Below, piece by piece: positions 6,600 to 58,262 of a stretch of DNA of 64,000 bases. The translations under genes were made by a program, and so were the position numbers. A model generated the notes under the pieces. That model ran no database searches, was not told where the DNA came from, and saw only the letters and a list, made by a program, of their open reading frames with translations. The number at the start of each line of letters is the position of its first letter. Position 1 is the first letter of the stretch. Source of the DNA: Candidatus Moranbacteria bacterium GW2011_GWE2_35_2- (lineage in GTDB: Bacteria; Patescibacteriota; Minisyncoccia; Moranbacterales; UBA9337); contig LBQD01000002.1 in assembly GCA_000990585.1 (NCBI GenBank), positions 120,016-184,015 on the forward strand. The letters run 5' to 3'.

Positions 6600-7715
6600 A
6601 TGTTTAATTTTTTTAAGAGTAAAGAAAATCGCTTTTTCGGGGTTGATTTTGGCGGGAGCGCTATCAAGGCAGTAGAACTTTCTTTAGAAAATCAAAAAGT
6701 TACTTTGATGAATTATGCATGGATTGATTTTAGCGGAGAACAAATAAAGGAAGAGCTGGATAGTCAATCTATTAATAAAATTACGGAAATTTACTTGGGT
6801 AAGCTCATAGATAAAATGGAGCCGAAAACTAAAAATGTTTGCGCTTCTATTCCGGGATTTAGCGGATTGGTTAATGTTATTGAGATTTCCAATATTAAAA
6901 AAGAGGAAGTGGGAAATGCTATCGAATACGAAGCGTATAAATATATTCCCGTTTCTTTGGATGAAGTGTATTTGTCATGGGATGTCCTTGATTTAGGAGA
7001 AGCGGATAGAAAAATCATTCAAAATGAAGAAAATGGCAAAGATTTTTCCGAAAAAAATGAGAAAGAAAAAATAAAAGTACTTCTTGTGGCTGCTCCAAAA
7101 GATGAAGTTAACAAATACGAAGAATTGATAATGAAAAATGGATTAAGAACTGCTACATTGGAATTGGACGTGTTTTCATCCGTACGTTCTCTTGTGGGAG
7201 ATGATATGGGGAATTATTTATTGATTGAAATTGGAGCGCGCACGACAACTATTGCCGCAATTAAAAAAGGTAATGTGATTATAAATCGTAATTTATATAT
7301 TGGCGGGAATGAATTTACAAAAAATATTTCCAGAGGAATGGATATTTCTTGGTTTAGGGCAGAAAGATATAAAAAAGAGAAGAAAGATTTAATAAATACA
7401 AATCAGGCGAGTGTAAATTTTTCCGCTTTGGATGTCATTTCCGGGGAAGCTAAGCGAATAATGCGAATGTTTCAAGAAAAAGAAGATGTGTCTCGAATGG
7501 ATGGAATTATTATTTCCGGAGGAACTGCAAAAATGGTTGGAATATTGGAATATTTTGAAAGGGAGCTGGGAAAGGGTGTTATAATTGGTAATCCGTGGAA
7601 AAAAGTGAAGTATGAAGCAAATTTGGAGGCGGTAATCAAGGATATCGGACCATCTTTTTCTGTTGCGGTCGGAGCGGCATTGAAAGGCGTGGAAGATTAT
7701 CAGCGAAATATTTAA
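6600..7715 (+). CDS. pilM: type IV pilus assembly ATPase-like protein PilM
   Basis: Actin-like fold; begins FFGVDFGGSAIKAV. Confidence 0.8.
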   Translation: MFNFFKSKENRFFGVDFGGSAIKAVELSLENQKVTLMNYAWIDFSGEQIKEELDSQSINKITEIYLGKLIDKMEPKTKNVCASIPGFSGLVNVIEISNIKKEEVGNAIEYEAYKYIPVSLDEVYLSWDVLDLGEADRKIIQNEENGKDFSEKNEKEKIKVLLVAAPKDEVNKYEELIMKNGLRTATLELDVFSSVRSLVGDDMGNYLLIEIGARTTTIAAIKKGNVIINRNLYIGGNEFTKNISRGMDISWFRAERYKKEKKDLINTNQASVNFSALDVISGEAKRIMRMFQEKEDVSRMDGIIISGGTAKMVGILEYFERELGKGVIIGNPWKKVKYEANLEAVIKDIGPSFSVAVGAALKGVEDYQRNI

Positions 7716-7791
7716 TTGAAAATATAAATCTTAAATTTTTTCGAATTTCTTGAATATTTTTATTCGGTTTTTCGAAAATAATATTAAAGCG

Positions 7792-8346
7792 ATGGTTAAT
7801 ATAAATCTTCACAGGGAAGAAAAAAAAGAAAATAGAATCTATGAATTGAATTTTTGGCGTAGCGGAACTTTTTTTTCAATAACTTTACTGATCGTGACTT
7901 CTTTTATTTATGCTGGTCAACTTTTATATAAAAAAAAGTTGGTTTCAAATGAAAATGCTATTATAAAGGAAATATCCGAAAAGAAAAGTTCTTTAGGAAG
8001 CGCGGCTCTTGTCAGTATTAAGGATTTCGATCAAAGGATTTCTAAGATTGATAATAATTTGGCACAGCGAGTTTATCCTAATGATGTGCTTGCTTATATA
8101 GAGGATTTTTTAGTAAAGAATGTTTATATTGATAGTTATAAATATGAAGATTCAAAGCAAGAGGTTGCGTTGAACGTAATAGCTGATAGCTATAATGCAA
8201 TAGCTAGTCAAATTTTAAATTTTAAAAAATCAGATAAGTTTTCTAATGTAGATATTTCCAGTACAAACAGAACGGAGGAGGGAAAAATAACATTTACATT
8301 AACGATGATTTTATCTAATTATAATAATCCGGAAAATAATTTGTAA
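7792..8346 (+). CDS. pilN: type IV pilus assembly protein PilN-like
   Basis: N-terminal MVNINL plus a single TM helix, placed after pilM. An internal Met start is preferred. Confidence 0.6.
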   Translation: MVNINLHREEKKENRIYELNFWRSGTFFSITLLIVTSFIYAGQLLYKKKLVSNENAIIKEISEKKSSLGSAALVSIKDFDQRISKIDNNLAQRVYPNDVLAYIEDFLVKNVYIDSYKYEDSKQEVALNVIADSYNAIASQILNFKKSDKFSNVDISSTNRTEEGKITFTLTMILSNYNNPENNL

Positions 8347-8367
8347 GAATAATTATTTTATAAAAAT

Positions 8368-9279
8368 ATGAAACTAAAATTCTTGTTTGTTCCCTTATCA
8401 ATCTTAATTTCCATAGTGTTGGTTATTTGGTACATTTGGCCGACATGGTTTGGCTTGGAGGGAATCAGAGAATATCAAAAGCGCATAGATATAAAAAAAT
8501 GCGAATTGGAAGAAGCGGATTTCAAAGTTCAAAACGCTGAAAGTTTGAAAAATTTTATGAGTTCTACTGATGGAAAAGTCTCAGTGGACAAGATTTATGA
8601 ATATTTTCCAATTGAAGAAAAGAATGAAAACATCATTAATGATATAAATTATATCGGAAACAGTTCTTCTGTAAGCATTATTGGCATAAATGTTAAAAGT
8701 GAAGAATTGAAGGATGATGATGATAAAGTTTTAACAACAGCAAAAGGTAGTGCAAATAAAAAATTATCCAGTACGCCTATGGCTAAAGCATGTTTAGATA
8801 GGATAGCGGAAAAATACGGAGACGTATCTGATATGGACATTAGTTATTTAGATCCTTTTGCCGGTCTGAACAATAGTTCCAGTGATATTGTTGGTGAAAT
8901 TGAGGGTACTAAAGAAAATTCAATAGTATCCATCAAAGCGGATGTTAAAGTTTCCGGTTCATATAAACAGTTGATTGTATTTTTGGATAATTTGTATCGA
9001 ATGAGGACTATAAATAATGTGTCCTCGATAAATATTTATAAGGATAATAATAAAAGAAATGAAGAGAATGCTGTTTCGAATCTCGATTTTTTGTCGATGG
9101 ATGTGAGTGCATATTTTGCTTATTTGCCAACGGATAATAATACCGCGCTAGGATTTGACGATCCAATTTTTGAAAAGAAATTATTTAATTTAACTGCCAT
9201 TAATAAATTAAATAAAATTGTGGAAATTCCAGAAATAAATATTGGTGATACGGGAAAAGACAATCCTTTTATTCCCTAA
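8368..9279 (+). CDS. pilO: type IV pilus assembly protein PilO-like
   Basis: N-terminal TM helix and its position between pilN and pilB. Confidence 0.5.
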   Translation: MKLKFLFVPLSILISIVLVIWYIWPTWFGLEGIREYQKRIDIKKCELEEADFKVQNAESLKNFMSSTDGKVSVDKIYEYFPIEEKNENIINDINYIGNSSSVSIIGINVKSEELKDDDDKVLTTAKGSANKKLSSTPMAKACLDRIAEKYGDVSDMDISYLDPFAGLNNSSSDIVGEIEGTKENSIVSIKADVKVSGSYKQLIVFLDNLYRMRTINNVSSINIYKDNNKRNEENAVSNLDFLSMDVSAYFAYLPTDNNTALGFDDPIFEKKLFNLTAINKLNKIVEIPEINIGDTGKDNPFIP

Positions 9280-9347: not shown

Positions 9348-11057
9348 ATGGAGGATAAAAATAAAAAACATCAAAAAGATGAAAAAAAATCAAATTCTTC
9401 AATAGTTGACAATGGAGTGGATTCGCTAGAGGAGAGAGCAAAGGAAATGAAAATTCCTTTTTTGAAAAAAGCTCCTTCGGCAGTCAGTGATTCGATTTTG
9501 AGAATAATTCCGGAAAAAACGGCGCGCAATTTTAATATGGTTGCATTTGAAGATTCTGAAAGCAAGGGAGTAAGTGTGGCAATGGTTGATCCGCAGGATA
9601 TTCAAGCACTGGACGTGCTTAGATTTATTGCAGAAAAAGAAAAAAAGGAAATAAATATTCATATAGCTTCTGCGGAAGTGGTAAGGGAAATCATTGATAA
9701 ATATAATACTGCCGAAGAAGCAGTAGAGGCGGTAGTTGAATCGTTTGAATTAGAGAGATTTAAGGATCAAAGATCTTTGTTGGGAAAAAGGAATGTTGAT
9801 GACCAACAAAATAATATACAAGATGCTCCGGTTTCAAAACTTGTAAGTGTGGTAATAAAACATGCTGTTGAAAAAAGAGCTAGTGATATTCATTTGGAGC
9901 CGACTGATGATGGTTATCGTATTAGGTTTCGTGTCGATGGAGTTCTTTATGCATCCTTGATTCTTCCAATGGAAGTAGGAAAGGCTTTTGTTTCGAGAAT
10001 TAAAATACTTTCAAATTTGAAAATAGATGAAAAACGAAAACCGCAAGATGGTAGATTCAATGTGAGTGAAGGCGGAGAAAATATTGATTTTCGCGTTTCT
10101 ACTTTTCCTGTTGTCGGAGGAGAAAAAGTAGTTATGCGTGTTCTTACTAAAGATAAGGGAATTTTTGATTTTAGCAAGCTGGGGCTTATTGGGCATAGCA
10201 AAGAGATTTTATCACGTAAAATTAATGAACCGAATGGAATTATATTAATTACTGGTCCTACCGGAAGCGGAAAATCAACAACATTGTATTCATTTCTTAA
10301 TGTAATCAATCAAGATACAAGAAATATTGTAACGTTGGAAGATCCTGTTGAATATTCAATAGAAGGTGTGAATCAAAGTCAAATTAAGCCGGAAATAGGA
10401 TATGATTTTGCTAACGGGCTACGTTCAATCTTGCGTCAAGACCCTAATGTTATTATGGTAGGAGAAATTCGTGATGGAGAAACAGCTGAGCTGGCAATTC
10501 ATGCCGCGCTTACTGGACATTTGGTTTTTTCTACCCTGCACACTAACAGCGCTATTGGCGCAGTTCCGAGGCTTGTGGACATGGGTATTGAGCCTTTTTT
10601 ACTTTCTTCCTCTCTTAAGGCTGTTGCTGCTCAGAGATTGGTGCGTAAAATTTGTACTTCTTGCAAAGAGGAATTTTCTGTATCCGATAAAGTAAAAAAC
10701 AATCTCTTAGAGGAAATAAAAAATGTGCCAGAAGAAGAATTGAAGAAATATGATCTGGACATATCCAAAGGATTGAAATTTTATAAAGGACGAGGATGTG
10801 AAGAATGTGGGGGGACTGGTTTGAAGGGTCGATTAGCAATTTATGAATGTATTGAGGTTAATGAAAGTATTCAGGAGGCAATCAATGAGGGTAAGGAAAT
10901 GAAAGTGGATGAATTGGCGAAAAGCCAAAAAATGATTACAATGAAGCAAGATGGAATATTGAAAGCGCTCAAAGGGATGACAGCTCTTTCAGAGGTTGAG
11001 AGAGTAACGGAAGGAAGTTTGACTATCGGAGGGGATGTGGATGATGATCGCGGATAA
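9348..11057 (+). CDS. pilB: type IV pilus assembly/extension ATPase PilB (GspE family)
   Basis: Walker A ILITGPTGSGKSTT, the GspE signature, and a C-terminal CxxC...CxxC motif. Confidence 0.9.
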   Translation: MEDKNKKHQKDEKKSNSSIVDNGVDSLEERAKEMKIPFLKKAPSAVSDSILRIIPEKTARNFNMVAFEDSESKGVSVAMVDPQDIQALDVLRFIAEKEKKEINIHIASAEVVREIIDKYNTAEEAVEAVVESFELERFKDQRSLLGKRNVDDQQNNIQDAPVSKLVSVVIKHAVEKRASDIHLEPTDDGYRIRFRVDGVLYASLILPMEVGKAFVSRIKILSNLKIDEKRKPQDGRFNVSEGGENIDFRVSTFPVVGGEKVVMRVLTKDKGIFDFSKLGLIGHSKEILSRKINEPNGIILITGPTGSGKSTTLYSFLNVINQDTRNIVTLEDPVEYSIEGVNQSQIKPEIGYDFANGLRSILRQDPNVIMVGEIRDGETAELAIHAALTGHLVFSTLHTNSAIGAVPRLVDMGIEPFLLSSSLKAVAAQRLVRKICTSCKEEFSVSDKVKNNLLEEIKNVPEEELKKYDLDISKGLKFYKGRGCEECGGTGLKGRLAIYECIEVNESIQEAINEGKEMKVDELAKSQKMITMKQDGILKALKGMTALSEVERVTEGSLTIGGDVDDDRG

Positions 11058-11130
11058 ATATGGTAGAATGAAATTGATTTGAAAAGTATTTTAATTATAA
11101 AACAATAATTAGGTTAATTTTTCGGAAACT

Positions 11131-11505
11131 ATGAAAAATAAAAAGCTGATTTTATTGGTGGAAGATGATATTTTCGTGAAAGATATTTATAATTACAAAC
11201 TTACATCCGAAGGATATGAGGTAGCAGTGGCAGGAAACGGAGCGGAAGCACTTAAATTTATGGAAAGCAGAAAACCGGATCTTATTTTATTGGATATTGT
11301 AATGCCGTTTATGGATGGGAAAGAAACGCTTCGAAAAATAAAATCTAACGATGAATGGAAAACAATTCCAATTATTATGTTAACTAATTTGTCGGAAGCT
11401 GATGATATTGAAGAAGTAGAATCTCTAGGTATAGATAAATATCTAATAAAATCGCATTTTTCTCCATCGGAAGTTTTTGCAAAAATTCAATTGATGATTG
11501 GATAG
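11131..11505 (+). CDS. stand-alone response-regulator receiver (CheY/PilH-like)
   Basis: LLVEDD...LILLDIVMP...K receiver motifs in a 124 aa protein. Confidence 0.85.
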   Translation: MKNKKLILLVEDDIFVKDIYNYKLTSEGYEVAVAGNGAEALKFMESRKPDLILLDIVMPFMDGKETLRKIKSNDEWKTIPIIMLTNLSEADDIEEVESLGIDKYLIKSHFSPSEVFAKIQLMIG

Positions 11506-11605
11506 GTAAAACTAATCATAGAATAGTATTCGCGTGCTTGAAAATCTAATGCTTTTTGTCTGAATGTATAAATTATATAGAAAACAAAAATAAAAAATAA
11601 ATATT

Positions 11606-12735: not shown

Positions 12736-13947
12736 ATGAAATTTGTTTTTGAAGCCAAAGATCAAAATGGAAAAGTGAAAAAAGGAAAAGTGGAGGCCGT
12801 CAACAAAGAAACGGCGGTTGAGGTTTTACATCAAAATATGTTAGTTCCTTTTTCTATTGAGCAGGAAAAGGAAATGAACAAGTTTCTCAAAGATTTGCAA
12901 AATTCATGGGATCGAGTGAGTCAGAAAGAATTGATGATTTTTTTTCGTCAATTTTCTACCTTGATTGGAGCTAAAGTTTCAATTATTAATTCTTTGCAGG
13001 CAGTGCGCGAGCAGATGGAAAACAAGGCATTGCGCAGGGTTATTCAGGAAATTTCTAATGATATCGAAGACGGAATGACACTGGCAGAAAGTCTTGAAAA
13101 ACATCCGGAAATTTTTTCAGCTCTCACAGTAAGTACGGTAAAAGCGGGAGAAGTTTCTGGAAATTTGCAAAAATCGATTTCCTATATCGCCGATAATATC
13201 GAGAAAAATTATCAACTTACCGCGAAAATAAAAGGAGCGCTTTTTTATCCGGTATTTGTTATTATTGCCGCATCAATCATCGGTTTTTTGACGATGATTT
13301 TTGTCATACCTAAACTTACTCAAGTTATTATTGATATGGGAGCGGAAATTCCTTGGTATACTCAAGTGATAATTACTACTTCTAGTTTTTTTGAAAATTA
13401 TTGGTGGGCGATTTTGGTGGTTATTTTGGGGGTTGTCGGAGGGAGTATGTATTACACTAGAACGGAATCCGGAAAAAGAGATTGGGATTTTGTTGTTTTG
13501 AAAATTCCAATTATTGGAAAATTGGCGCGATATGTATATATAACCAGATTTTCTAGTAATTTTTCAATGCTTTTAGCGGGAGGAATTCCGATTGTGCAGG
13601 CGCTTGTGGTGGTAAGCGAAGTTGTCAATAATACTATTTACAAGGGAATCATTCTTCGTGGCGCGGATGAGGTCAAGGCAGGGGGAAATATTAGCAGTAT
13701 TTTTTCCCGGTCGACATATATTCCCGTAATTGTCACCAGAATGATAAAAATAGGAGAAGAGACGGGAGAGATGAATGGTTCGCTTGACAGTATCGCCAGT
13801 TTTTATGAAAAAGAAACGGATAATATTGTTCGTAATTTGACATCATTGATTGAACCGGTTTTGATTGTGTTTTTGGGAATTGGTGTGGCAGTTTTGGTTT
13901 TTGCGATTTTGCTGCCAATATATAACATTACGGGAAATATTAAGTAG
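12736..13947 (+). CDS. pilC: type IV pilus inner-membrane platform protein PilC (GspF family)
   Basis: Two T2SS-F-like repeats and TM segments. Confidence 0.85.
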   Translation: MKFVFEAKDQNGKVKKGKVEAVNKETAVEVLHQNMLVPFSIEQEKEMNKFLKDLQNSWDRVSQKELMIFFRQFSTLIGAKVSIINSLQAVREQMENKALRRVIQEISNDIEDGMTLAESLEKHPEIFSALTVSTVKAGEVSGNLQKSISYIADNIEKNYQLTAKIKGALFYPVFVIIAASIIGFLTMIFVIPKLTQVIIDMGAEIPWYTQVIITTSSFFENYWWAILVVILGVVGGSMYYTRTESGKRDWDFVVLKIPIIGKLARYVYITRFSSNFSMLLAGGIPIVQALVVVSEVVNNTIYKGIILRGADEVKAGGNISSIFSRSTYIPVIVTRMIKIGEETGEMNGSLDSIASFYEKETDNIVRNLTSLIEPVLIVFLGIGVAVLVFAILLPIYNITGNIK

Positions 13948-14049
13948 TTCTATGTTTTATATTGAGGGTGTGATATAATTATTGTAAGGAAATTGGGATA
14001 GGTTTAAATATAGAAAATAAAAATTAAAAAAAAGAATGGAGGTGAAAAT

Positions 14050-14403
14050 ATGAAAAATACAATGAAAAAAGGTTTTACATTGATCGAACTTTTGATTGTT
14101 ATTGCAATTATCGGTATCTTGGCTTCCATCGTTTTGGTATCCTTGAACAGTGCGAGAACAAAAGCTAGGGATGCTCAGTTTAAGGCACAAGCTTCCAGTG
14201 TTCATGCGGCGGTTGTTATAGATTGTGATGATGGAACATATAATACTACCGAAGCTCTGCCTGATCCAACATCGTGGACAACTACTCCTGTTTGCGGATC
14301 TAGTGGAATTATCACATCCGGAGTTCTTGCGCCAGGCGCAACTGGAACTGCATGTACTTCGGCTACAATTTCAAATACTGGAGTTGTTTTTGCGGACTGC
14401 TAA
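14050..14403 (+). CDS. pilA: type IV major pilin (prepilin, class III signal G|FTLIELLIV)
   Basis: Prepilin motif [20 protein letters not shown], with RBS GGAGGTG. Confidence 0.9.
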
Positions 14404-14474
14404 TTTTAGTCTTTTTACCTACTAACATAAAGTTGGTAGGTATATGAGGTTAAAATTGTTTTATATTTTATATA

Positions 14475-14900
14475 ATGTTAAAAAAATATTTATTTACAGA
14501 AAGACAAGGGTTTACATTAATCGAGCTTTTGATTGTTATTGCAATTATCGGTATTTTGGCTTCCATCGTTTTGGTATCCTTGAATAGCGCGAGAATTAAG
14601 GCTAGGGATGCGTCATTCAAATCAACCGCGTCCAGTGTGAATGCGGCGGCAATGATGTGTTGTAATTCTGAAGGAATAATTCAAGAAAAAAATGCGGGTG
14701 ATGGTGGCGCGGTGGCAATTTGTAATCCTGCCCAAGGAACAGTCTATCCGGATGATGCAAATTTGGAAACAGCGGTTGTGAACACCGCTTGCGCCAATGA
14801 TCATTATCAAATTACTGTTACACCTGGAACAGGAAACCTTGGGACTTGTACTAGTGCGACATTTAATCAAACTGGAATTATCGGCTATGCCGGATGCTAA
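14475..14900 (+). CDS. type IV pilin paralog (second major-pilin-like gene)
   Basis: [30 protein letters not shown]; the first ~100 nt of the mature N-terminus are ~90% identical to pilA. Confidence 0.85.
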
Positions 14901-14956
14901 TTTTCAAGGAATTAGGAATCGAGACATATTTATAGGGTATTTACTTTTTTGAAGAT

Positions 14957-15754
14957 ATGATTATTTTAATTTTTTTTATCGGCGGTTTAATAACAGGGAG
15001 TTTTTTAAATGTTGTTGTATATCGATTGAATTTGGCAGAGTCGATGTTCGCTGGGCGATCGATGTGTCCGCATTGCAAAGCCAAAATCCGTTGGTATGAC
15101 AACATTCCGCTTCTTAGCTTTGTTCTTCTGCGGGCTGAGTGTCGCGATTGCAAGGGAAAAATTTCATGGCAATATCCATTGGTGGAATTTTTGACAGGAT
15201 TGTTTTTTGCGTTAATCGGTATGTGTTTTTTTTCTCTGACAGATTATCAGTCTTGGATTGAAACCGGATTTTTATTAGTGCTTTTTTCCGCGCTAATGGT
15301 GATTTTTGCTTATGATTTGAAGTTTATGGAAATCCCGATGATTTTTTTGTGGGCGGGAATCGGCTGGACACTGGTATTTTATATATATTTTGACGCAGTT
15401 AATTTTTCTGAATTTGCTTCAATGTTTTCTTCACAAACATTTTCCGGAATAATTGGTGCGTTTGTTGCTTGGGTATTCTTTTTTTCAATGGCATTTTTTT
15501 CCAAGGAGAAATGGATGGGAATGGGTGATGCTTATTTGGCGATACTTGTCGGACTTACAGTTGGATGGCCGAAAATTTTCCTAACATTAGTACTTTCTTT
15601 TTTATCGGGAGCGATTTTTAGTATATTTTTGATTTTATCTAAGAAAAAAAGCATGAAAAGCCAAGTGCCCTTCGCGCCTTTTTTGGTAATTGGAACAATC
15701 GCAACTCTTTTCTTATATCAAGCCTTTCCTCAATATTTGAAGTACTTGTTTTGA
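14957..15754 (+). CDS. pilD: prepilin peptidase PilD (A24 family)
   Basis: Zinc-binding CPHC...CRDC region and multi-TM peptidase A24 motifs. Confidence 0.85.
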   Translation: MIILIFFIGGLITGSFLNVVVYRLNLAESMFAGRSMCPHCKAKIRWYDNIPLLSFVLLRAECRDCKGKISWQYPLVEFLTGLFFALIGMCFFSLTDYQSWIETGFLLVLFSALMVIFAYDLKFMEIPMIFLWAGIGWTLVFYIYFDAVNFSEFASMFSSQTFSGIIGAFVAWVFFFSMAFFSKEKWMGMGDAYLAILVGLTVGWPKIFLTLVLSFLSGAIFSIFLILSKKKSMKSQVPFAPFLVIGTIATLFLYQAFPQYLKYLF

Positions 15755-33258: not shown

Positions 33259-33340
33259 ATCTGCCTGTATTATAACGTATTTTGGAATAAAATAAAAACC
33301 GTCTTTTCTGCAATTACATGAGCAAAAAAACACTTTATTC

Positions 33341-33399
33341 CTTTCTATAATTAATGAAAAAGAAATTTTAAAATTTTTTAAAACAATTGGGCGATAGCC
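33341..33399 (-). promoter_or_regulatory. 57-bp repeat R1 copy A, upstream of the MTase remnant (also found at 39747-39802)
   Basis: CTTTCTATAATTAATGAAAAAGAAATTTTAAAATTTTTTAAAACAATTGGGCGATAGCC matches the second copy at ~54/57. Confidence 0.7.
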
Positions 33400-33404
33400 C
33401 AAAA

Positions 33405-33548
33405 AAGAAAAGGAATATTTCAGCTAACGTATCGCAATATCTGACGTTTCGTCACCACTTTTAAATTATAACATAGAGTGACGAAATGTGGCTTTAGCCC
33501 TTGCAGATATTGCGTGTTAGCTGATGTATTAAAAAATTCTTTTCGGCT
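33405..33548. mobile_element. palindromic MITE-like element P1 (imperfect TIRs ~40 bp, internal nested palindrome)
   Basis: Left end ATATTTCAGCTAACGTATCGCAATATCTG; right end CAGATATTGCGTGTTAGCTGATGTATT...AAAAAATTCTTTTCGG. Confidence 0.6.
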
Positions 33549-33565
33549 TTTGCCTTTAGGCAAAA

Positions 33566-33595
33566 GATTTAATCGGGGCAAATTTATTTTTATTT
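33566..33595. repeat. cassette D left inverted repeat GATTTAATCGGGGCAAATTTATTTTTATTT (partner at 34317-34347, 29/29)
   Basis: The exact reverse complement lies directly upstream of the gene D start codon. Confidence 0.85.
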
Positions 33596-33622
33596 CTTAC
33601 TAAAATAATTGTATAAATATTG

Positions 33623-34309
33623 TTAATTGCTCTGGTACTCTGGTAATCCTGTTTTTTTCAGGCATTCATTTTGCAAATTTATACTTAATTTCGAACATTT
33701 TGACGAACATTTCACCCAGGCTTCATTATAATCATTAATCATTTTTTCAGTACGTTCAGATGGAAATGGTAGTGTTGAAAGACTCTTTTCACAATCTTCA
33801 AGACAATTAGTCGCTTCAATTGGTTCTTTATTACACTTTTCAATAGCATCGTTGTTTGCTCTTAGCAATGGTGCGTTTTGCCACCCGCGAACAGTAGCAA
33901 AAGCAAAGCTGGAAATATCAAAAATAATTATAACCGATAAAAATAATATAAAGTATTTTTTCCAATTTTTCGTATTGATATAACGCCCAATAAAAAAAGC
34001 AGGAATCAAAAATGTTATCGCCATTGCCAAGCTTACTATTAAGGTTCCAAACATGTTAAATGTGGGAAAACCAAAATAGTCAGTTGTAGCATATCCAATC
34101 GGTAAAAAACTGAAAAACTTGCCATATACCATATAAAGCAGAAAAGAAAATGGGGAGAATAAGGTATCAAATATGTAAAACGGAGAGTTCAACCAGATAT
34201 CATTAGGGTTTAGTAGCCATGACTCAAAAAGTTCCTTGGTACCACTAAAAATAATCCAAATAAACAATAAAGATTGTGTTGTTGATAATTTCAGTTTTTT
34301 TTTATTCAT
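33623..34309 (-). CDS. hypothetical multi-TM membrane protein with Cys-rich extracytoplasmic C-terminus (cassette D)
   Basis: 228 aa ORF bounded precisely by a 29-bp IR pair. Confidence 0.55.
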   Translation of the reverse strand: MNKKKLKLSTTQSLLFIWIIFSGTKELFESWLLNPNDIWLNSPFYIFDTLFSPFSFLLYMVYGKFFSFLPIGYATTDYFGFPTFNMFGTLIVSLAMAITFLIPAFFIGRYINTKNWKKYFILFLSVIIIFDISSFAFATVRGWQNAPLLRANNDAIEKCNKEPIEATNCLEDCEKSLSTLPFPSERTEKMINDYNEAWVKCSSKCSKLSINLQNECLKKTGLPEYQSN

Positions 34310-34316
34310 GTTTTTA

Positions 34317-34347
34317 AAATAAAAATAAATTTGCCCCGATTAAATGC
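34317..34347. repeat. cassette D right inverted repeat (abuts the ATG of gene D)
   Basis: AAAATAAAAATAAATTTGCCCCGATTAAATG is the reverse complement of 33566-33595. Confidence 0.85.
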
Positions 34348-34348
34348 C

Positions 34349-34566
34349 CGAAGGGTCGAAAAGAATTTTTTAATATTTCAGACAACGTTTCGGCACATGC
34401 GAAGTTGCGCCGTGGATTATTGATTAACTTTTAATATTCACTTGCCTCTATTATATAACTAAACTTGCCATTTCGTCAGCGCAATTTGGGAGAGGAAATT
34501 TTGCACTCCCTGGAATATATTTACGCAAAATTTCTGAACCGCATGTGCCGTGTTGTCTGATGTATT
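34349..34566. mobile_element. palindromic MITE-like element P2 carrying an outward promoter (TGACGA-17-TATAAT on minus strand) toward cassette D
   Basis: TIRs CGAAAAGAATTTTTTAATATTTCAGACAACGTTTCGGCACATGCG and CGCATGTGCCGTGTTGTCTGATGTATTTTTTCAT. Its centre is shared with P3 (GAAGTTGCGCC...CAGCGCAATTTGGG). Confidence 0.65.
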
Positions 34567-34663
34567 TTTTCATCTTCTACCTTAATTGCACAAACTTTAC
34601 TTTGCGCAAAGAAAATTTGATTTTTTAAATTAAAAGTTTTTGTTTTGCCTTTAGGCAAAACAG

Positions 34664-34692
34664 ATTATTTGGGGCTATTTTTTATTTTTTAC
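34664..34692. repeat. cassette E left inverted repeat GATTATTTGGGGCTATTTTTTATTTTTTAC (partner 35819-35848)
   Basis: Near-perfect reverse complement directly upstream of the gene E ATG. It is preceded by the hairpin TTTTGCCTTTAGGCAAAA, which is also found before the cassette D repeat. Confidence 0.85.
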
Positions 34693-35817
34693 AAAAATTT
34701 GTCCTCTGCCTATCCACTCAATCAATTCATTGGCTTGAGAATCAATGTTTGAAAGAAGCTCTGGATAACAGGGTTGTAATTCAGCATTAAAAATCAGCAA
34801 ATCCTTTAATCCGTGTGCGTAGTCAAATCCTATCTTTTCGCAATTCTGTAAAAATTTTCTTCTGAAAGGTATCAGTTTTTCTTTTCGTGAATCAGATACA
34901 ACCGAAAAAGTTTTCATATCCGCTACAATTCTATGAAAAACTCGCAATAATTCCATTGTAACTCGACAAAGCTGGACGTCCGAGCTACCAGTAATTTCTG
35001 AAAATTTTGTAATCAGTGGCATGATGTGATCGGCTTCATAGGCCTTGTCTGAGTTGTTTACCAACATTAACAGCCTTTCTAAACCTACAACTGAAAATGA
35101 CCAAAAATTTTCCCAGCGAACCAAATCAACAACTGTGTCATTCTCGTAAATAGGTCTCCATAACAAATTTTCGATTGAAGCGATATCCAACGGCTCACTC
35201 AGGTTGTCAGTTTTATACAAAATTTCATTCCTATATCCCCACGCAACTGGCGGGGTAAAGTTTAGAGCTAGTAGAGTTGTCCTCGTTTTGTCCGGTATAA
35301 ATTGCTCTTCATTGATTCCAAATTCTTTTGCAATCCCAATGAATGGGTCAGCCTCGATATTTTTATCAAACTTATATTTTCCAGCGGTTATTTCTTCAGC
35401 TTTTCCGCCCGATAAATATGAAATAACGAAGCGTTTTGGCTCTAGCCCCAACTCATTTATCAAAAACTCGAAAATTTTTCTGATAGTAAAATCGGCGATG
35501 TCTTTGCGTTGCTCATCTGCAATATCTTTTCCACCAATAAAGCCCGACACATCAGCCATATCAAAAAGCAAAAGATGAGTATCATCCATGGCATCATTGA
35601 AGTCATTAACTCTTATGACTTGCTGAATTGTTGAAAAGTTGTAGGCCTCAGAATTGTCTAGATAATTACCGAATTTTTCAAGAAATGGTCCTTCGCCAAA
35701 ACTTATGTTGAAATTTCCAGGAAATCCCTTGTTCACGATTAAAGAATGAGGAATTTTTTGAGTTCCCTGAAATTTAGAAAAATTTTCAATTTTATTCCTT
35801 AACTCTAAATATTTCAT
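34675..35817 (-). CDS. alanyl-tRNA synthetase catalytic-core paralog (class IIc aaRS-like, 380 aa, degenerate active site), cassette E
   Basis: Co-linear similarity to the AlaRS N-terminus (FSKFQGTQKIPHSL, QQVIRVND...THLLLFDMADVSGFIGG, WENFWSFSVVGLERL, LRVFHRIV). The motif-2 loop [13 protein letters not shown] is replaced by RVNDFNDAMDD and the VDTGMGLER segment by SVVGLER. The alignment is made from memory. Confidence 0.6.
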   Translation of the reverse strand: MKYLELRNKIENFSKFQGTQKIPHSLIVNKGFPGNFNISFGEGPFLEKFGNYLDNSEAYNFSTIQQVIRVNDFNDAMDDTHLLLFDMADVSGFIGGKDIADEQRKDIADFTIRKIFEFLINELGLEPKRFVISYLSGGKAEEITAGKYKFDKNIEADPFIGIAKEFGINEEQFIPDKTRTTLLALNFTPPVAWGYRNEILYKTDNLSEPLDIASIENLLWRPIYENDTVVDLVRWENFWSFSVVGLERLLMLVNNSDKAYEADHIMPLITKFSEITGSSDVQLCRVTMELLRVFHRIVADMKTFSVVSDSRKEKLIPFRRKFLQNCEKIGFDYAHGLKDLLIFNAELQPCYPELLSNIDSQANELIEWIGRGQIFVKNKK

Positions 35818-35818
35818 A

Positions 35819-35848
35819 AAAAAAATAAAAAATAGCCCCCAAATAATC
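35819..35848. repeat. cassette E right inverted repeat (abuts the ATG), followed by hairpin CCCGCCGTAGGCGG
   Basis: AAAAAATAAAAAATAGCCCCCAAATAATC. Confidence 0.85.
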
Positions 35849-35935
35849 CCGCCGTAGGCGGAAAAACTTTTAATTTAAAAAATCAAATTTTCGTCTTTAT
35901 TCATTGCACAGAATCTGAAATTACCACCAAAGATG

Positions 35936-36065
35936 AAAAAATATTTCAGACAACGTTTCCGAATATCTGAAGTTGCGCCCATATTTGTTGGCTAAAACTT
36001 CAAACATTCACCTATTTTGATTATATCACCAAATCTTACTTTATCATAGCGCAATTTGGGTGGAG
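35936..36065. mobile_element. truncated P-element copy P3 with promoter TTGCGC-18-TGaTATAAT (minus strand) toward cassette E
   Basis: The left TIR ATATTTCAGACAACGTTTCCGAATATCTGAAGTTGCGCC and the centre are conserved; the right TIR is absent. Confidence 0.55.
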
Positions 36066-36099
36066 CAAAAGAAAAATATAGAATAATTCTCCTTATTAT

Positions 36100-36124
36100 T
36101 AGTGCCCTTTTGAAATTTTTTTGG
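36100..36124. repeat. cassette F left inverted repeat TAGTGCCCTTTTGAAATTTTTTTGG (partner 36517-36539)
   Basis: 20/22 reverse-complement match; flanks a one-gene module with its own promoter and terminator. Confidence 0.8.
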
Positions 36125-36219
36125 CGTGGTCTTGACAGGCTGACTATTTTCTGCTATACTATTTTGAACACTAATTTTGGTGTCAAATTGTACCTACACA
36201 ATAAACAAAGGAGACTGAA

Positions 36220-36447
36220 ATGAGTTCAGAAAACTTACTTCTAGCGATGGTTTGGGTGCTTTCTGGCTTGTTTGTTGCATTCATAATGCACAAGGCTGAC
36301 GAAAGTAAGAGCGAAAATTACAAAGGAAATTATTGGCTTAAAAACAGCCGTCATCTAGAAATCATCGTTTTTAATATCGTTCTTCTCGCGCCACTCGCTC
36401 TTATTTTTGGCATAGCCGCAATGATGGACTATGTCAAAAAAGAGTAG
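36220..36447 (+). CDS. small hypothetical membrane protein (75 aa, 2 TM), cassette F
   Basis: Promoter TTGACA-17-TATACT at 36133-36161, RBS AAGGAG, and terminator CCACC...GGTGGTTTTTTT at ~36466-36510. Confidence 0.6.
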   Translation: MSSENLLLAMVWVLSGLFVAFIMHKADESKSENYKGNYWLKNSRHLEIIVFNIVLLAPLALIFGIAAMMDYVKKE

Positions 36448-36516
36448 GCTATAACAGAGCTCTGTTCGCACACAAGCCACCCCGGGACTCTTTCTCGAGG
36501 TGGTTTTTTTCTTTTC

Positions 36517-36539
36517 TAAAAAATTTCAAAAGGGCACAA
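36517..36539. repeat. cassette F right inverted repeat AAAAAATTTCAAAAGGGCACAA
   Basis: Reverse complement of 36100-36122. Confidence 0.8.
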
Positions 36540-36724
36540 TTTAAATAAAAAATTATTCTATATTTTTCTTTTGCGTAACCAGATACACAGTGTGAGTTGA
36601 TGTATTCCTTTTATTTTTTCCGAATGCTGTCGGAATTGTTTTTAAAAATTTTAAAATTTCTTTTTCCGTTTTGGATTTTGGGCAGAGGGAAATTAAAGGG
36701 GTGAATGCCCGAAGCCCAAAACTC

Positions 36725-37708
36725 CTATTTCTTTTTGCATGTCAAAAAATTATCTAATGCTTCAAACGAATTAAATATATTTGAAGGTGATAATTCTAAA
36801 ATAATAGCAATCAGTTGCTCTGTTAATCTGATAAACATTTCCATTTCTTTATAGTCAATCTGCTCCGTCTTTTTGCCAAAATGAATTAGGCGATTTCTTG
36901 TTTTATTGATCCTCTGAATATTTTTTCTGGAAGTATCATCAATATTTTTTAAAAAATATTCGTTTAAGATAAAAGCGATTTTTTTATCGCCACTCATTTG
37001 TTCAATTGCTGTATTATCAAGCCATTTGCGATTTTTAATCGCAAAAATATGTTCCCAAATTGTCCAACAAGAAATAAATGCTGTTTCAATTATCTGTCTT
37101 TGCATAGCGGATTTGAATAAAAATAAAAAATATCCACCCTCGTATTCATTTTGCCATTTCTCACTTGAAATAAGATTGAGAACCTTGTTTATAGTATTCT
37201 CAAAACCTACATTGATTTGGTGATAATCAAAAACTGGTATGTCCTTCATTTCTATTTCAGTTTTTAATTTTCCAGTATTTATATTTTTCCACCTTGATTC
37301 GTATTGTATTGAACATCCTAGCTGACCACCATATTGATGTATTCTGTGATCGCTTATTATCGCGATATTTTCGCTATCCTCCCAGTCCTTTTTAAACACA
37401 TTTCTATCGGTAAATATGGTAAGTAAAAATAAAATATCATCAAGTTGTGTTAGCTTGTCATCACCGAATGGCAATACACATTTTTTCTCATTTTCTGGTA
37501 TGCCTACTTCTGCTGTTATTTGGTGTGAGCCAACTTTAATTGTTGTATTGAATTCGCTACCAAATGAATTTACCAAACACATCATGCCATCAAAAGCATC
37601 TTTATAATTTTTTATTCTTTTAAAAATATAGTCTCCTATTTTCAGTTCTTCTATGTATGGCTCAAATTCTAAATTGAAAATTTGCAGTATTTTATTTTTT
37701 TGTTCCAT
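36725..37708 (-). CDS. hypothetical protein (327 aa), last gene of the C5-MTase restriction-modification operon
   Basis: Sits 3 nt downstream of the C5-MTase stop; function unknown. Confidence 0.5.
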   Translation of the reverse strand: MEQKNKILQIFNLEFEPYIEELKIGDYIFKRIKNYKDAFDGMMCLVNSFGSEFNTTIKVGSHQITAEVGIPENEKKCVLPFGDDKLTQLDDILFLLTIFTDRNVFKKDWEDSENIAIISDHRIHQYGGQLGCSIQYESRWKNINTGKLKTEIEMKDIPVFDYHQINVGFENTINKVLNLISSEKWQNEYEGGYFLFLFKSAMQRQIIETAFISCWTIWEHIFAIKNRKWLDNTAIEQMSGDKKIAFILNEYFLKNIDDTSRKNIQRINKTRNRLIHFGKKTEQIDYKEMEMFIRLTEQLIAIILELSPSNIFNSFEALDNFLTCKKK

Positions 37709-37711
37709 AAT

Positions 37712-38689
37712 TTATTTTAAATCAGCCATTATTTTTTTTGCTAAATGGTGAGCAAAATTTACAGCAACAGCATTCCCAATCATTTTATATCCGTCAGCGA
37801 TATCACGATATTTGAAAATAAAATCATCAGGGAATGTTTGAATTCTTGCACATTCACGAACAGACAAACGACGATATAAATGTTCTTTTCCGGGAACAAA
37901 AATTCTTTTGTTTTGTTCAATGAATTTCATTTTTGGGGCTTGTGGATGAAGTGGAGCATGACGACCTCCTGCTTGAATTGTGAAAGAGGGTTCATCCCAT
38001 GAGCGAACGCGATTTCGCGACATATAAATTGAAGAAAAACCGCCATTCATATATTCGTGATTTGGGATTTTCAATACATCGCCATTTGTTTTATTTTTAT
38101 CTAAAGCAGGTTTTGCTAAACGTAAATCATAAATAGCGTCTTTCAATACAGGTTTATATTTTTGCGGTTCTGGAAATTCAAATTTTTTCTTTAGTTTTTT
38201 ATTATATCCCACAATAATGACACGTAATCTATCTTCAGGAACATCATAATCATTTGCATTCAATAATTTGCAAGAAATTTCATATCCAGCATTCTCAAAT
38301 TCTTTTATTATATTTGAAAAAGCCTCTTTGTGTTTAGGATGAAGAATACCCGATACATTTTCTGCAAGAAAAAATTTTGGCTGTTTTTCTTTTAATAAAC
38401 GGATATAATCATAAAATAATTTTCCTCGCTTGTCATTTATTCCACGCCCAGCTCCAGCCTCACTCCAACTTTGACAAGGTGGTCCGCCAATAATTCCGTC
38501 AACATCAGGAATTTCAGAAGCGGGAACATCAACAATACTTCTTTTATCAAGTTTTGTTTTTGGAAAATTGTGTTCAAAAGTTTCCCAAATAGTTGGGTCA
38601 TATTCATTTGCCCAGATGACATGAAAACCAGCTTTTTCAAAGCCTAGATCAAGTCCTCCTGCACCTGTAAACAATGAAGCTATTTTCAT
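37712..38689 (-). CDS. DNA (cytosine-5)-methyltransferase, small M.HhaI-size enzyme
   Basis: Motif [12 protein letters not shown], motif [11 protein letters not shown], motif VI ENV and motif X GNAVAV. Confidence 0.9.
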
Positions 38690-38691
38690 AA

Positions 38692-39672
38692 TTATTCGTG
38701 ACTAATATTTAGTGTGTTTTTAAATAATTTTTTCGGTGATTTCAAAAGATTTATATCAAATTTCAAAGACGATTCAACTCTAGAACTTGCATTATGAATA
38801 CGAAAAGAAAGAGTCCAATCATTATTCATGGTTACTATTGCTGTTGTTTGACTATCGGTTTTGAAACAAATATCAACAATTTCTGTTGGCAATGGAACTT
38901 TTGGTGTTTTGTATTTTGGAAGAATGTCGTCAAAAGGTAAATTTAATGTTCCATTCAAATTGTAAGCGTGTATTTCTACACTATTTTTGCCCTTAATAAC
39001 TTTGTAAAAATCTTTATTTCCAACAAGGTATGCGACTAGATTAGACGCTACTTTTTTAAAATCTTTTTTGTATAGATTTTTTAGTTCTTTAATAAAGGCT
39101 TTTAAAATTGGAATATAGATTGATGAATGATAATCACCAAGCTCACTCCATTTTTTCTTTGCACCGCTTTCTTTTCTAATTTTTTCTAAATTAGAAAAAA
39201 TAGGTTTTACTGTGTCAAAATATTCTTTTGATGTTTTTATTCCAAGCCACTTTTCACCAAAATCAATATTCGAAGATAGTCGGGAGTGCTTTACTGCATG
39301 ATGATTGTTTTTGGCTGATACTCCAATTTCCCATTTTTGCAATAAACGAATTGCTAAAACATCTCTAACATCGCCTGATTTTCCATGTTGATCTGATAAA
39401 ATTTCAAGTTGCAGAATATCGTCTTTGCCAATATCGTTTGTGAGACGTGGCTCTATATCCATTAAAAAATTAACTGCAAAACTAGCAGTGAGTAGATAAT
39501 CGCTCTTTTCTGTTTCGCTCACATTCTCAAAACAGCCTTTTGCAATTTCAAAAGAAGAATTTTTGATAACTTCAAGATTTGTTTTGTCTTTCAATTTTTC
39601 TTCAAATTGAACAAGCAAAGCATACTCAAAAGATTTTCCAGTTGTCATTTGTCTTGATGCAGTAGTTGTCAT
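38692..39672 (-). CDS. putative type II restriction endonuclease (possibly HaeIII-like family), first gene of the operon
   Basis: Called from its position 2 nt upstream of the C5-MTase and an N-terminal GKSFEYALL motif recalled from GGCC-type endonucleases. The family call is tentative. Confidence 0.4.
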
Positions 39673-57772: not shown

Positions 57773-57866
57773 TTTTTAGCTTTTTAGAAATTAGCTTTTT
57801 AGCTTTTTAGCTTATAGATCTGAAAGCCTAAAAAGCCACAGCCTATAATCTAATTGCTAATTTACG

Positions 57867-58262
57867 TGGAGCTGATGGGAATTGAACCCATGTCCAAATT
57901 GAAATTAAAAAATATTCTACAAGTTTAGTTTGTTTATTTAGTACGGATTATTGACTGAAAAACAGACAAAACATCAATAATACGTTCTTGGAATATTTTA
58001 TCGGAAACAATCAAGAATAATTGTGTCCGACTATCTCAATGGTTGGCACCAAGATCTGTTTATTGAGAATCAACAGCTTGATGGCTACCGGCCTGTATTA
58101 GGCAATAGCTGAAGCAAAAGCGAAGTTTCTTGCGAAAGTTGCCTTTACTTTTGATATAAAGTTTGCACTTAGATATCTTTCATAAACATTTTTTCGACTT
58201 GTATTATGAATGGTCGACTTGCGTATTTTTTAAGGTGCAATCTGTCGAAGCTAAGCAGCCCC
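57867..58262 (-). ncRNA. ssrA: tmRNA (ssrA)
   Basis: 5' GGGGCUGCUUAGCUUCGAC... and 3' ...GGACAUGGGUUCAAUUCCCAUCAGCUCCA. The acceptor has the G3-U70 pair. Candidate tag ORF GCA AGA AAC UUC GCU UUU GCU UCA GCU AUU GCC UAA (A)RNFAFASAIA*. Confidence 0.85.

Follow-up and report, generated by a model that had tools for sequence, protein, structure and literature searches.

Catalytic cores of aminoacyl-tRNA synthetases have repeatedly been freed of their anticodon or editing modules and re-used, as in HisZ, AsnA, PoxA/EpmA (GenX) and YadB/GluQRS, and the SerRS-like amino acid:carrier-protein ligases are a further case of such re-use. Alanyl-tRNA synthetase (AlaRS) was long described as architecturally unchanging, and AcmF, the first reported AlaRS-like paralog with a new chemistry, is recent. 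In this study, we analyzed a gene coding for a 380-aa homologue of the AlaRS aminoacylation core, found in a 64,000-nt stretch of DNA from Candidatus Moranbacteria bacterium GW2011_GWE2_35_2- (contig LBQD01000002.1, positions 120,016 to 184,015, hereafter the window). Judging from conserved residues and homology, we consider with a probability of about 0.5 that this protein is a functional member of a family of AlaRS-core paralogs and would act, in an ATP-dependent manner, on a substrate other than alanine. The family is present in Patescibacteria (the candidate phyla radiation, CPR) and in DPANN archaea, where it coexists with genuine small AlaRS, and its members consist of the catalytic core and a truncated tRNA-recognition (ATL) domain.

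The closest described systems differ in what they have kept of AlaRS. AcmF, from the ascamycin pathway of Streptomyces, is a truncated AlaRS-like protein made of the aminoacylation and tRNA-recognition domains only, with Asn-to-Gln and Asp-to-Glu changes; it has lost most ATP-binding residues and is an Ala-tRNA-dependent transferase using pre-charged Ala-tRNA, in an actinobacterial nucleoside-antibiotic gene cluster where its partner is the AlaRS AcmD (PMC12945691). The mini-AlaRS of Tupanvirus (TuAlaRS, 461 aa) has motifs 1-3 and a whole tRNA-recognition domain, activates alanine and charges tRNA-Ala, and a core-only AlaRS is still able to bind the acceptor stem (PMC10036535). Small AlaRS of CPR, DPANN and Asgard lineages combine the catalytic, ATL and editing domains (bioRxiv 10.1101/2023.05.29.542759). 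An earlier reading of the window, made from its letters without database searches (the sequence-only reading), knew of no AlaRS-core paralog of this kind. AcmF (PMC12945691) and TuAlaRS (PMC10036535) make this statement outdated in general, but a full-text literature search, which returned AcmF, mini-AlaRS, small AlaRS and AlaX-type work, gave no description of the present family, and these stand-alone paralogs of the AlaRS N-terminus appear to be unnamed and undescribed.

The gene lies within a 9-kb stretch (about 31-40 kb) of minus-strand genes, whose GC content and GC skew are unlike those of the flanks.

34675-35817, minus strand: paralog open reading frame (ORF), ATG start, intact, 380 aa, own stop codon

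With single-sequence hidden Markov models (HMM), matches to AlaRS were weak and below cut-offs: E 0.0068 and 15.4 bits for Pfam tRNA-synt_2c (PF01411; cut-off 30.3), E 1.8e-5 and 23.2 bits for TIGR00344 (cut-off 457), and 17.3 bits for NF002436 (cut-off 529). These matches were nonetheless co-linear in position. A search of PDB with the single paralog sequence gave chance matches only (a GH65 hydrolase), so that a profile search was required. By BLASTP, the closest AlaRS found in sequence is P0030, a small AlaRS of 594 aa from Pacebacteria (E 5e-13, residues 1-300). An alignment of 28 family members, named A1, was used for the profile and for all conservation counts. The A1 profile matched AlaRS catalytic fragments in PDB with E 1.3e-6 to 2.8e-3, and hhalign comparison with 8 AlaRS N-termini gave a probability of 99.9% and E 2.5e-34, residues 1-380 of the paralog being co-linear with residues 1-372 of E. 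coli AlaRS. An AlphaFold2 model built on the family alignment (mean pLDDT 92.4, pTM 0.91) matched AlaRS catalytic fragments in Foldseek with E 1e-17 and TM scores of 0.73-0.78. The paralog is thus confirmed as a homologue of the class IIc AlaRS aminoacylation core, with the same fold. The sequence-only reading had placed the ORF exactly and recognized this homology from motifs that are indeed present in the protein; the HMM search it had in mind as a check gives weak matches by itself, and the more sensitive methods settle the matter. One of its pairings does not stand, as the segment LRVFHRIV, matched there to LRRIIRRAV of AlaRS, is paired by hhalign with IRSCAFLIAD of E. coli.

We then compared the substrate site with that of E. 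coli AlaRS, whose sequence was checked against PDB 3HXU so that published numbering applies; residue equivalences were read from the hhalign alignment. The residues of the E. coli enzyme that bind alanine or lactate are M43, R69, W170, N212, D235 and G237 (PMC12467997). Their equivalents in the family, counted over the 28 A1 sequences, are as follows.

E. coli M43: E42, 28/28
E. coli R69: R69, 28/28
E. coli W170: L183, 28/28
E. coli N212: position 221, variable (R/K/Q/A/E/C/D)
E. coli D235, the Asp of VDTG: position 241, F/I/L/V
E. coli G237: position 243, V/A

Only one of the six, the motif 2 arginine R69, is kept. The replacement of the VDTG Asp had been seen in the sequence-only reading, and with five alanine-binding residues out of six replaced, its view that the protein is unlikely to be a simple alanine-activating enzyme holds. 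The ATP site gives the opposite picture.

E. coli R69: R69 (motif 2), 28/28
E. coli D76: D72, 28/28
E. coli F90: F85, 28/28
E. coli E91: D/E86, conservative
E. coli M92: M/L87, conservative
E. coli E209: E216, 27/28
E. coli G239, E241 and R242: G245, E247 and R248 (motif 3 GxER), 28/28 each

All aligned class II ATP/adenylate-site residues are therefore invariant or conservatively kept, which disfavours the inactive decoy that had been offered as an option. The A1 alignment has 31 invariant positions, among sequences down to 33% identity. Four of the invariant polar residues, K147, R179, R196 and D211, align with no AlaRS ligand-binding residue mapped, and invariant E198 aligns with E. coli E183. 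Two changes, the invariant Glu in place of M43 and the loss of D235, suggest that the substrate may carry a differently anchored amine or may not be an amino acid.

The GGKH loop of motif 2 is absent from the paralog, as had been noticed. Its loss is not diagnostic, however, because bona fide CPR AlaRS share it: genuine enzymes of 577-608 aa (P0030, P0130, P0144, P0147) have the same short loop, CxRTxDIxEVGDxTH. This small-AlaRS loop aligns without gap with the paralog segment IRVNDFNDAMDDTH and small AlaRS is therefore a candidate ancestor of the paralog. Both occur in the same organisms and have the same motif 2 loop without GKHN, with R-x-x-D-x-x-x-x-x-D-D-T-H aligned gap-free, but HHTFFEM, the tryptophan of NFW, EIWN, VDTG and the editing domain are found in small AlaRS and are all lacking in the paralog. 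Among AlaRS themselves, the GKHN segment of this loop is missing in the small CPR enzymes P0030, P0130, P0144, P0147 and P0159, and conserved in the E. coli, Aquifex and human ones.

The C-terminal truncation is the second difference from AlaRS. In AlaRS, the G3:U70 pair is read by Asn303 and Asp400 of the tRNA-recognition domain (PMC10036535). The paralog keeps the first, helical part of this domain, and the distal part with the D400 equivalent is missing; in the hhalign alignment, the residue in the Asn303 column is V306 for the window protein, and only part of the family has Asn there. A very basic, conserved helix corresponds to the RGYVLRR segment of AlaRS, and its R311 is invariant in the family. 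There is no Pfam match to the editing domain (tRNA_SAD, PF07973) on the 380-aa paralog, and the C-Ala domain is absent as well. Of the C-terminal parts that the sequence-only reading held to be missing, editing and C-Ala domains are indeed lost, and the tRNA-recognition domain is partly retained. Compared with the AlaRS aminoacylation fragment (E. coli 1-441, PDB 3HXU; 9JC7; A. aeolicus 1RIQ), identity is about 20% and the paralog ends near E. coli residue 372, short of the D400 segment, the domain for editing and the C-Ala domain. An E. coli AlaRS fragment, 368N, whose end point is close to that of the paralog, reportedly forms the adenylate and does not charge tRNA.

Could the paralog nevertheless be a genuine AlaRS, either a split or minimal form or a piece of alaS from a fragmented assembly? 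The core homology is co-linear, and minimal forms exist, such as TuAlaRS (PMC10036535) and small AlaRS (bioRxiv 10.1101/2023.05.29.542759). No other alaS was found in the 64-kb window, which says little for the whole genome. On the other hand, D235, N212, G237, W170 and M43 are all replaced, and TIGR00344 scores 23 bits against a cut-off of 457. As the ORF is complete, with its own stop codon and a length (366-391 aa) conserved in almost all sequences collected, it is hardly the alaS fragment that the sequence-only reading had allowed for. Moreover, locus L042, from a Pacearchaeota metagenome-assembled genome (MAG), carries a family member (7650-8786) 5 kb from a complete small AlaRS gene (13836-15623), whose product is 46% identical to P0030 over 592 residues; the paralog is therefore not the AlaRS of that cell. 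The search for a bona fide alaS thus came out negative in the window and positive next to a relative. As to the phylogeny of AlaRS cores, it is limited here to neighbour-joining distances, which give the family a long separate stem relative to a single small-AlaRS outgroup and do not bear on its monophyly. TuAlaRS exceeds the paralog by about 80 residues and differs from it in the substrate pocket. Taken together, a genuine AlaRS is extremely improbable.

A word-indexed search gave 29 full-length relatives and a second indexed search 95; HMMER, run exhaustively on 1.8 billion cluster representatives, gave 143. Almost all are 350-400 aa long, and they are annotated as 'hypothetical' throughout, except for two that were automatically named 'alanyl-tRNA synthetase'. 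Across GTDB species genomes, 42 loci were found, all in Patescibacteria/CPR (Uhrbacteria, Buchananbacteria, Berkelbacteria and MAGs labelled Saccharibacteria) or in DPANN archaea (Woesearchaeota, Pacearchaeota, Nanoarchaeota and Iainarchaeum). The IMG/VR viral contigs contained no relative, and a phage origin of the paralog was rejected on this ground. Between the window gene and its 91%-identical counterpart in locus L009, dN/dS (the ratio of nonsynonymous to synonymous substitution rates) is 0.07: the gene is intact and evidently under purifying selection. This value and the residue pattern are best read as the signs of a probable new function on an old scaffold, and not of decay.

Some peculiarities of individual family loci may be mentioned. 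In a Nanoarchaeota MAG (L027, 8535-10858), two tandem, diverged paralog copies lie downstream of a single gene for a TrmB-like protein. In two Woesearchaeota loci (L043, 223-1422; L044, 279-1472), a gene for a transporter of about 399 aa, of the major facilitator superfamily type, immediately precedes the paralog in the same orientation, and relatives of it are found farther from the paralog in L023 (563-1762), L036 and L038. More divergent AlaRS-core-like N-termini, with the motifs SAGMVQFE, IQNCFRYFDL and HLSLFQM, were also seen in much larger proteins (P0164, 1488 aa; P0166, 910 aa; P0138, 460 aa), possibly another AlaRS-derived family.

To find recurrent neighbours, ORFs were called in all family loci and clustered. 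The sole recurrent neighbour family is a protein of about 250 aa with an N-terminal TrmB winged-helix domain (PF01978), which matches TrmBL2 (PDB 5box) over its full length with E 1e-6. The link is present in 18 of the 42 loci, and occurs in archaeal and bacterial members. In 15 loci, the TrmB-like gene is upstream and divergent, adjacent to the paralog or separated by up to two small ORFs, and it is within 3 kb upstream in two further ones.

L023, 9160-9903: example of a TrmB-like gene

The small intervening ORFs of DPANN loci recur in 2-3 loci only by local clustering, and nothing informative was seen in their sequences. In several CPR sequences, the paralog ends in a fused domain, the C-terminal 140 residues of the TrmB-like protein without its DNA-binding part (L048 of Berkelbacteria, 9926-11557; P0032, P0050, P0071 and P0170-P0173; blastp E 1e-19 to 5e-28). 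Such a fusion is a putative Rosetta-stone link between enzyme and regulator, and the association as a whole speaks for either regulated expression or a complex of enzyme and regulator. No TrmB-like gene was detected in the window by tblastn.

An association with a regulator might also mean that the paralog is a non-catalytic sensor or regulatory subunit, which would bind ATP, a small ligand or uncharged tRNA without turnover and signal to the TrmB-like transcription factor, in the manner of HisZ/HisG or of the HisRS-like domain of GCN2. Degenerate pseudo-synthetases such as HisZ and GCN2 usually lose the motif arginines, the adenine-stacking Phe and acidic residues. In the present family, by contrast, the motif 2 and 3 arginines, this Phe and the acidic residues are invariant, so that the catalytic motifs are conserved, and the recurrent partner is a regulator and not an enzyme, unlike in HisZ-type systems. 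In addition, a TrmB-like partner is lacking near the gene in the window clade and in many CPR members, and in the AlphaFold2 model of a fusion the TrmB-like C-terminal domain (pLDDT 34-64) received no confident placement. We consider a sensor unlikely.

In a single CPR clade, with 36-39% protein identity to the window protein, the paralog ORF runs up to, or into, a tRNA gene of the same strand.

L007, 11156-11228: ORF-end tRNA
L012, 4687-4760: ORF-end tRNA
L014, 1481-1553: ORF-end tRNA
L018, 11141-11213: ORF-end tRNA
L020, 2756-2833: ORF-end tRNA
L022, 11150-11413: ORF-end tRNAs, two copies and an odd one of 83 nt
L031, 9230-9390: ORF-end tRNAs, two
L037, 11147-11228: ORF-end tRNA

In five of these loci (L007, L012, L014, L018 and L020), the two genes overlap by 18-21 nt, so that the ORF closes within the 5' part of the tRNA and takes its stop codon, TAG, from the D-loop; a co-transcript processed by RNase P would then lose this codon. 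The protein tails ...GGVAQ or ...AQQ are translated tRNA sequence, and 15 database proteins carry such a tail. Covariation supports the cloverleaf, with 98% of cells paired and compensatory changes at 12 pairs, against at most 56% paired in slid controls. These tRNAs have G2-C71, G3-C70 and A73; often they also show a G5-U68 wobble and an A1 whose pair with position 72 is weak or mismatched; the D-loop has no GG and the T-loop has TGC in place of TTC. The anticodon loop is irregular in 5/7, with a pyrimidine at 37 or a non-U at 33, around UAC/UAU. In L022, canonical tRNA-Ile(UAU) and tRNA-Val(GAC) genes are found 4 kb away, and in L015, L018 and L019 the paralog is directly preceded by tRNA-Ser genes.

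The T-loop TGC in place of TTC is also known from the non-proteogenic tRNA-Gly of the staphylococcal cell wall (PMC7826273), and several of the ORF-end tRNAs have irregular anticodon loops in addition. Unlike this staphylococcal marker, however, the same elbow is widespread in metagenomes, on tRNAs with every kind of anticodon, and among the loci listed no paralog stands beside it. A scan of metagenomes for a D-loop of the form CA[AG]NAG[CT]AGAGC (without G18G19) combined with a GTGC T-loop (U55 to G) gave at least 80 loci (L051-L130); in the loci listed, such tRNAs are of all anticodon types and often stand in arrays of 20-38 tRNAs per locus. The combination appears to be an alternative design of the tRNA elbow.

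Abutting tRNA genes raise the question of a transferase like AcmF, in which the paralog would bind a charged tRNA and move its aminoacyl group to a small molecule or an envelope precursor. AcmF is likewise a truncated AlaRS-like protein, taken up for a reaction outside translation, in which the canonical Asn and Asp are changed (PMC12945691), and one close relative of the window gene is located between mraY and murD. The two proteins nevertheless diverge at the ATP site: its residues, mostly lost in AcmF, are all kept in the paralog family, where the Asn and Asp equivalents are variable or hydrophobic and not Gln and Glu. The distal tRNA-recognition segment is missing, and the 42 loci show no conserved biosynthetic neighbours or cluster around the gene. 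A transferase of this type is quite improbable.

We return to the reading in which the paralog is an active enzyme with a new substrate. It would bind ATP, use it to turn a carboxylate that is not L-alanine into an acyl- or aminoacyl-adenylate, and pass the acyl group to an acceptor. The tRNA 3' end is a serious candidate acceptor, because of the basic RGYVLRR-like helix and of the tRNAs overlapping the ORF; caution is required because the distal recognition segment is missing. GluQRS, a truncated synthetase that still acts on tRNA, offers an analogy. Activity may be under regulator-coupled control through the TrmB-like protein, with a logic similar to that of BirA, an adenylating enzyme coupled to a winged-helix repressor, which is here an analogy and not a relative. 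A bolder version would make the system a non-translational synthetase:tRNA pair, in which the AlaRS-derived enzyme loads a non-alanine acid on a dedicated, co-transcribed tRNA overlapping its stop codon, under TrmB-like control and with spread by cassettes; such pairs would occur in CPR bacteria and possibly DPANN archaea, cassettes having perhaps carried them between domains. As a joint claim this version is rather unlikely.

Several observations weigh against the enzyme reading, or against its tRNA part. Charging of tRNA by the paralog is in doubt, because the D400 segment is absent and the Asn303 equivalent is not conserved. The residue mapping comes from a profile-profile alignment, and BLAST and hhalign place the strand around E209 and N212 in different registers. 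The elbow signature had to be rejected as the mark of a dedicated non-proteogenic tRNA, since none of the 80 metagenome loci listed with it encodes the paralog; the overlap of tRNA and ORF and the irregular anticodon loops are unaffected by this. The window clade itself has no adjacent tRNA or TrmB-like gene, and both links are extrapolated from relatives 33-40% identical; a covariance-model search with filters off gave no tRNA-like element above 5 bits at 33300-36800, and the six tRNAs of the window are all canonical. Finally, three of the four closest relatives, window included, adjoin restriction-modification (R-M) or other defence genes. Among the competing explanations, we rank the sensor first in likelihood, then the AcmF-like transferase, a defence or toxin component, and a true AlaRS.

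The finding adds to the re-used synthetases a sizeable family confined to two radiations of ultra-small, host-dependent prokaryotes, with an intact ATP site and a new, strongly conserved substrate pocket. Two experimental handles are at hand, the fused or divergent TrmB-type regulator and the tRNA that overlaps the ORF in one clade. Should the protein charge this tRNA or make a signalling adenylate, it would reveal a new aspect of CPR/DPANN physiology, for example in the envelope, regulation or host interaction, and it could also be a candidate, taken from nature, for an orthogonal synthetase:tRNA pair.

The surroundings of the gene in the window are organized in cassettes, with the following elements around the paralog.

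35940-35979: upstream junction, right ('b') arm; on the gene strand it ends ...AACGTTGTCTGAAATATT (repeat family D1)
36580-36606: left ('a') arm of the upstream junction, parted from the right arm by a nested insertion (repeat family D2)
36065-36574: nested element of 510 nt with 57-nt inverted repeats (86% complementary), inside the upstream junction (I1)
36220-36447, plus strand, opposite to the paralog: 75-aa hydrophobic ORF of the nested element
36020-36047, minus strand: sigma-70-like promoter, ATGATA, 16-nt spacer, TATAAT, TG-extended (10/12, consensus match only)
35820-35892, minus strand: 5' leader, inverted repeat of the 3' trailer (I2, I6, I7)
34611-34690, minus strand: 3' trailer, inverted-repeat partner of the leader, overlapping the stop codon (I2, I6, I7)
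34372-34566: downstream junction, with arm a (AATACATCAGACAACACGGCACATGCG), promoter-like site 34479-34450 and arm b (CGCATGTGCCGAAACGTTGTCTGAAATATT) (D1, D2, I22)
34301-35957, minus strand: unit shared with L009 (leader, ORF, trailer, downstream junction; blastn, 87.8% nt identity)
33414-33530, 34372-34566 and 35940-36606: the three junction elements of the window
L009 9780-9881 and 11252-11440; L010 60-150 and 1395-1605: junction elements elsewhere

The junctions, which part the genes of the island from one another, share a common design, in which a promoter-like site lies between a left arm (AATACATCAG[AC][CT]AAC...) and a right arm (...GTT[GA][TG]CTGAAATATT). They have CAGACAAC/GTTGTCTG or CAGCTAAC/GTTAGCTG as outer boxes, after which come an asymmetric spacer and an inner box, and the arms pair into a long imperfect hairpin; for the two that were folded, z was -4.1 and -7.1, no shuffle being as stable. 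The DNA fold of the downstream junction, about 89% identical to that of L009, has -32.1 kcal/mol (z -4.07). Two of the internal promoter-like sites score 10/12 against the sigma-70 consensus and face the downstream gene, and the site at 36020-36047, within the upstream hairpin element, points at the paralog ORF; promoter-like sites showed no overall enrichment in the island region. Each island ORF is moreover bracketed by its own leader/trailer inverted repeat. That of the paralog, which accounts for the inverted-repeat flanking reported in the sequence-only reading, has 31 nt at 100% and 23 nt at 96% complementarity; the leader contains a small GC hairpin (35863-35847) and, read by eye, a G-rich stretch resembling a ribosome-binding site, and the trailer hairpin is at 34639-34664. 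The ORF of the nested element has its own strong promoter-like site at 36132-36160 (11/12 consensus matches), and its product has no match in Pfam or PADLOC.

Comparison of the window with L009 delimits the mobile unit. Outside 34301-35957 nothing aligned in the two neighbourhoods, and homology starts at 35957, the GTT of the right arm of the upstream junction following 3 nt further on. In L010 (79% identity), the junction architecture is the same, and the leader of the next cassette is that of the methylase cassette of the window. In this lineage, the paralog is thus mobile as a single-gene, hairpin-bounded, promoter-carrying cassette. Integron cassettes and CALINs, the latter being cassette arrays without integrase by definition, consist of single ORFs that all point the same way, the sites between them being imperfect hairpins with a GTT...AAC core (PMC4889954, PMC9668308). 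The island resembles them in that the same cassette occurs in different arrays, the order of cassettes varies and homology breaks at the GTT core, but its cores fit GTTRRRY only partly, and its elements are long (117-195 nt) and contain promoter-like sites. The Pfam scan of island ORFs revealed no integrase or tyrosine recombinase, and none was found in the window by tblastn with the XerC-like protein of L009 as query, which is a weak test. Overall, the island has the look of an integron-type array of cassettes, with no integrase in view. This structure suggests integron-like shuffling in Patescibacteria, a plausible route for the spread of such genes across domains.

The other genes of the island, on the minus strand and in the order of the gene strand, are the following, those with a named protein family having been assigned by Pfam/PADLOC search.

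38692-39672, minus strand: HaeIII endonuclease
37712-38689, minus strand: C5 methylase
36725-37708, minus strand: Apea-like HEPN protein, 327 aa
34675-35817, minus strand: paralog
33623-34309, minus strand: multi-pass membrane protein, 228 aa
32791-33402, minus strand: Eco57I/N6-type methylase fragment, 203 aa
31631-32623, minus strand: PDC-S18-like protein, 330 aa (PADLOC candidate defence family PDC-S18, E 6e-16)

The paralog thus stands, as had been described, between R-M genes, with the HaeIII pair and the HEPN gene on one side and the Eco57I-like methylase fragment on the other. From this placement the sequence-only reading had proposed a defence or toxin role; the protein could then be a decoy or a sensor of phage interference with translation, or a tRNA-directed toxin working with its HEPN and R-M neighbours, to which the PDC-S18-like gene may be added. 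Close relatives also have defence genes: in L009 the genes ahead of the paralog are those of a type III R-M pair and a KAP NTPase, with dnaN and dnaA farther downstream, and in L010 it precedes an N6/N4 methylase and the toxin HicA. These defence genes, however, differ case by case and are on separate cassettes. In L011, the 75%-identical relative P0004 is encoded between mraY and murD in a complete dcw/mur cluster, without junction elements. No family of the PADLOC-DB 2.0 models matched the paralog at E <= 0.01, and among the 120 neighbouring proteins of the 42 loci no defence family was enriched in Pfam domains, the maximum being 2/120. No conserved partner gene able to act as an effector was found near the paralog, and, as said above, IMG/VR viral contigs do not carry the gene. 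The defence idea derives solely from location, is contradicted by the wider family contexts and is not supported; the location in the island is explained by the mobility of a single-gene cassette, which gives no defence role. We regard a defence or toxin role as very improbable.

Two minor features of the island genes were noted. The HaeIII endonuclease, C5 methylase and HEPN genes are separated by gaps of 2-3 nt, which suggests a three-gene R-M-HEPN module, and the 203-aa Eco57I/N6-type ORF looks like the N-terminal fragment of a longer type II/IIG enzyme. Elsewhere in the window, a tmRNA gene (57864-58262) encodes the tag ANFISKVKATFARNFAFASAIA, and in the related CPR locus L016 the tag is ANLSNNVAKRIVSPFATLNYAFA. 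Both tags end in an alanine-rich stretch, and both are longer than the E. coli tag of 10-11 residues.

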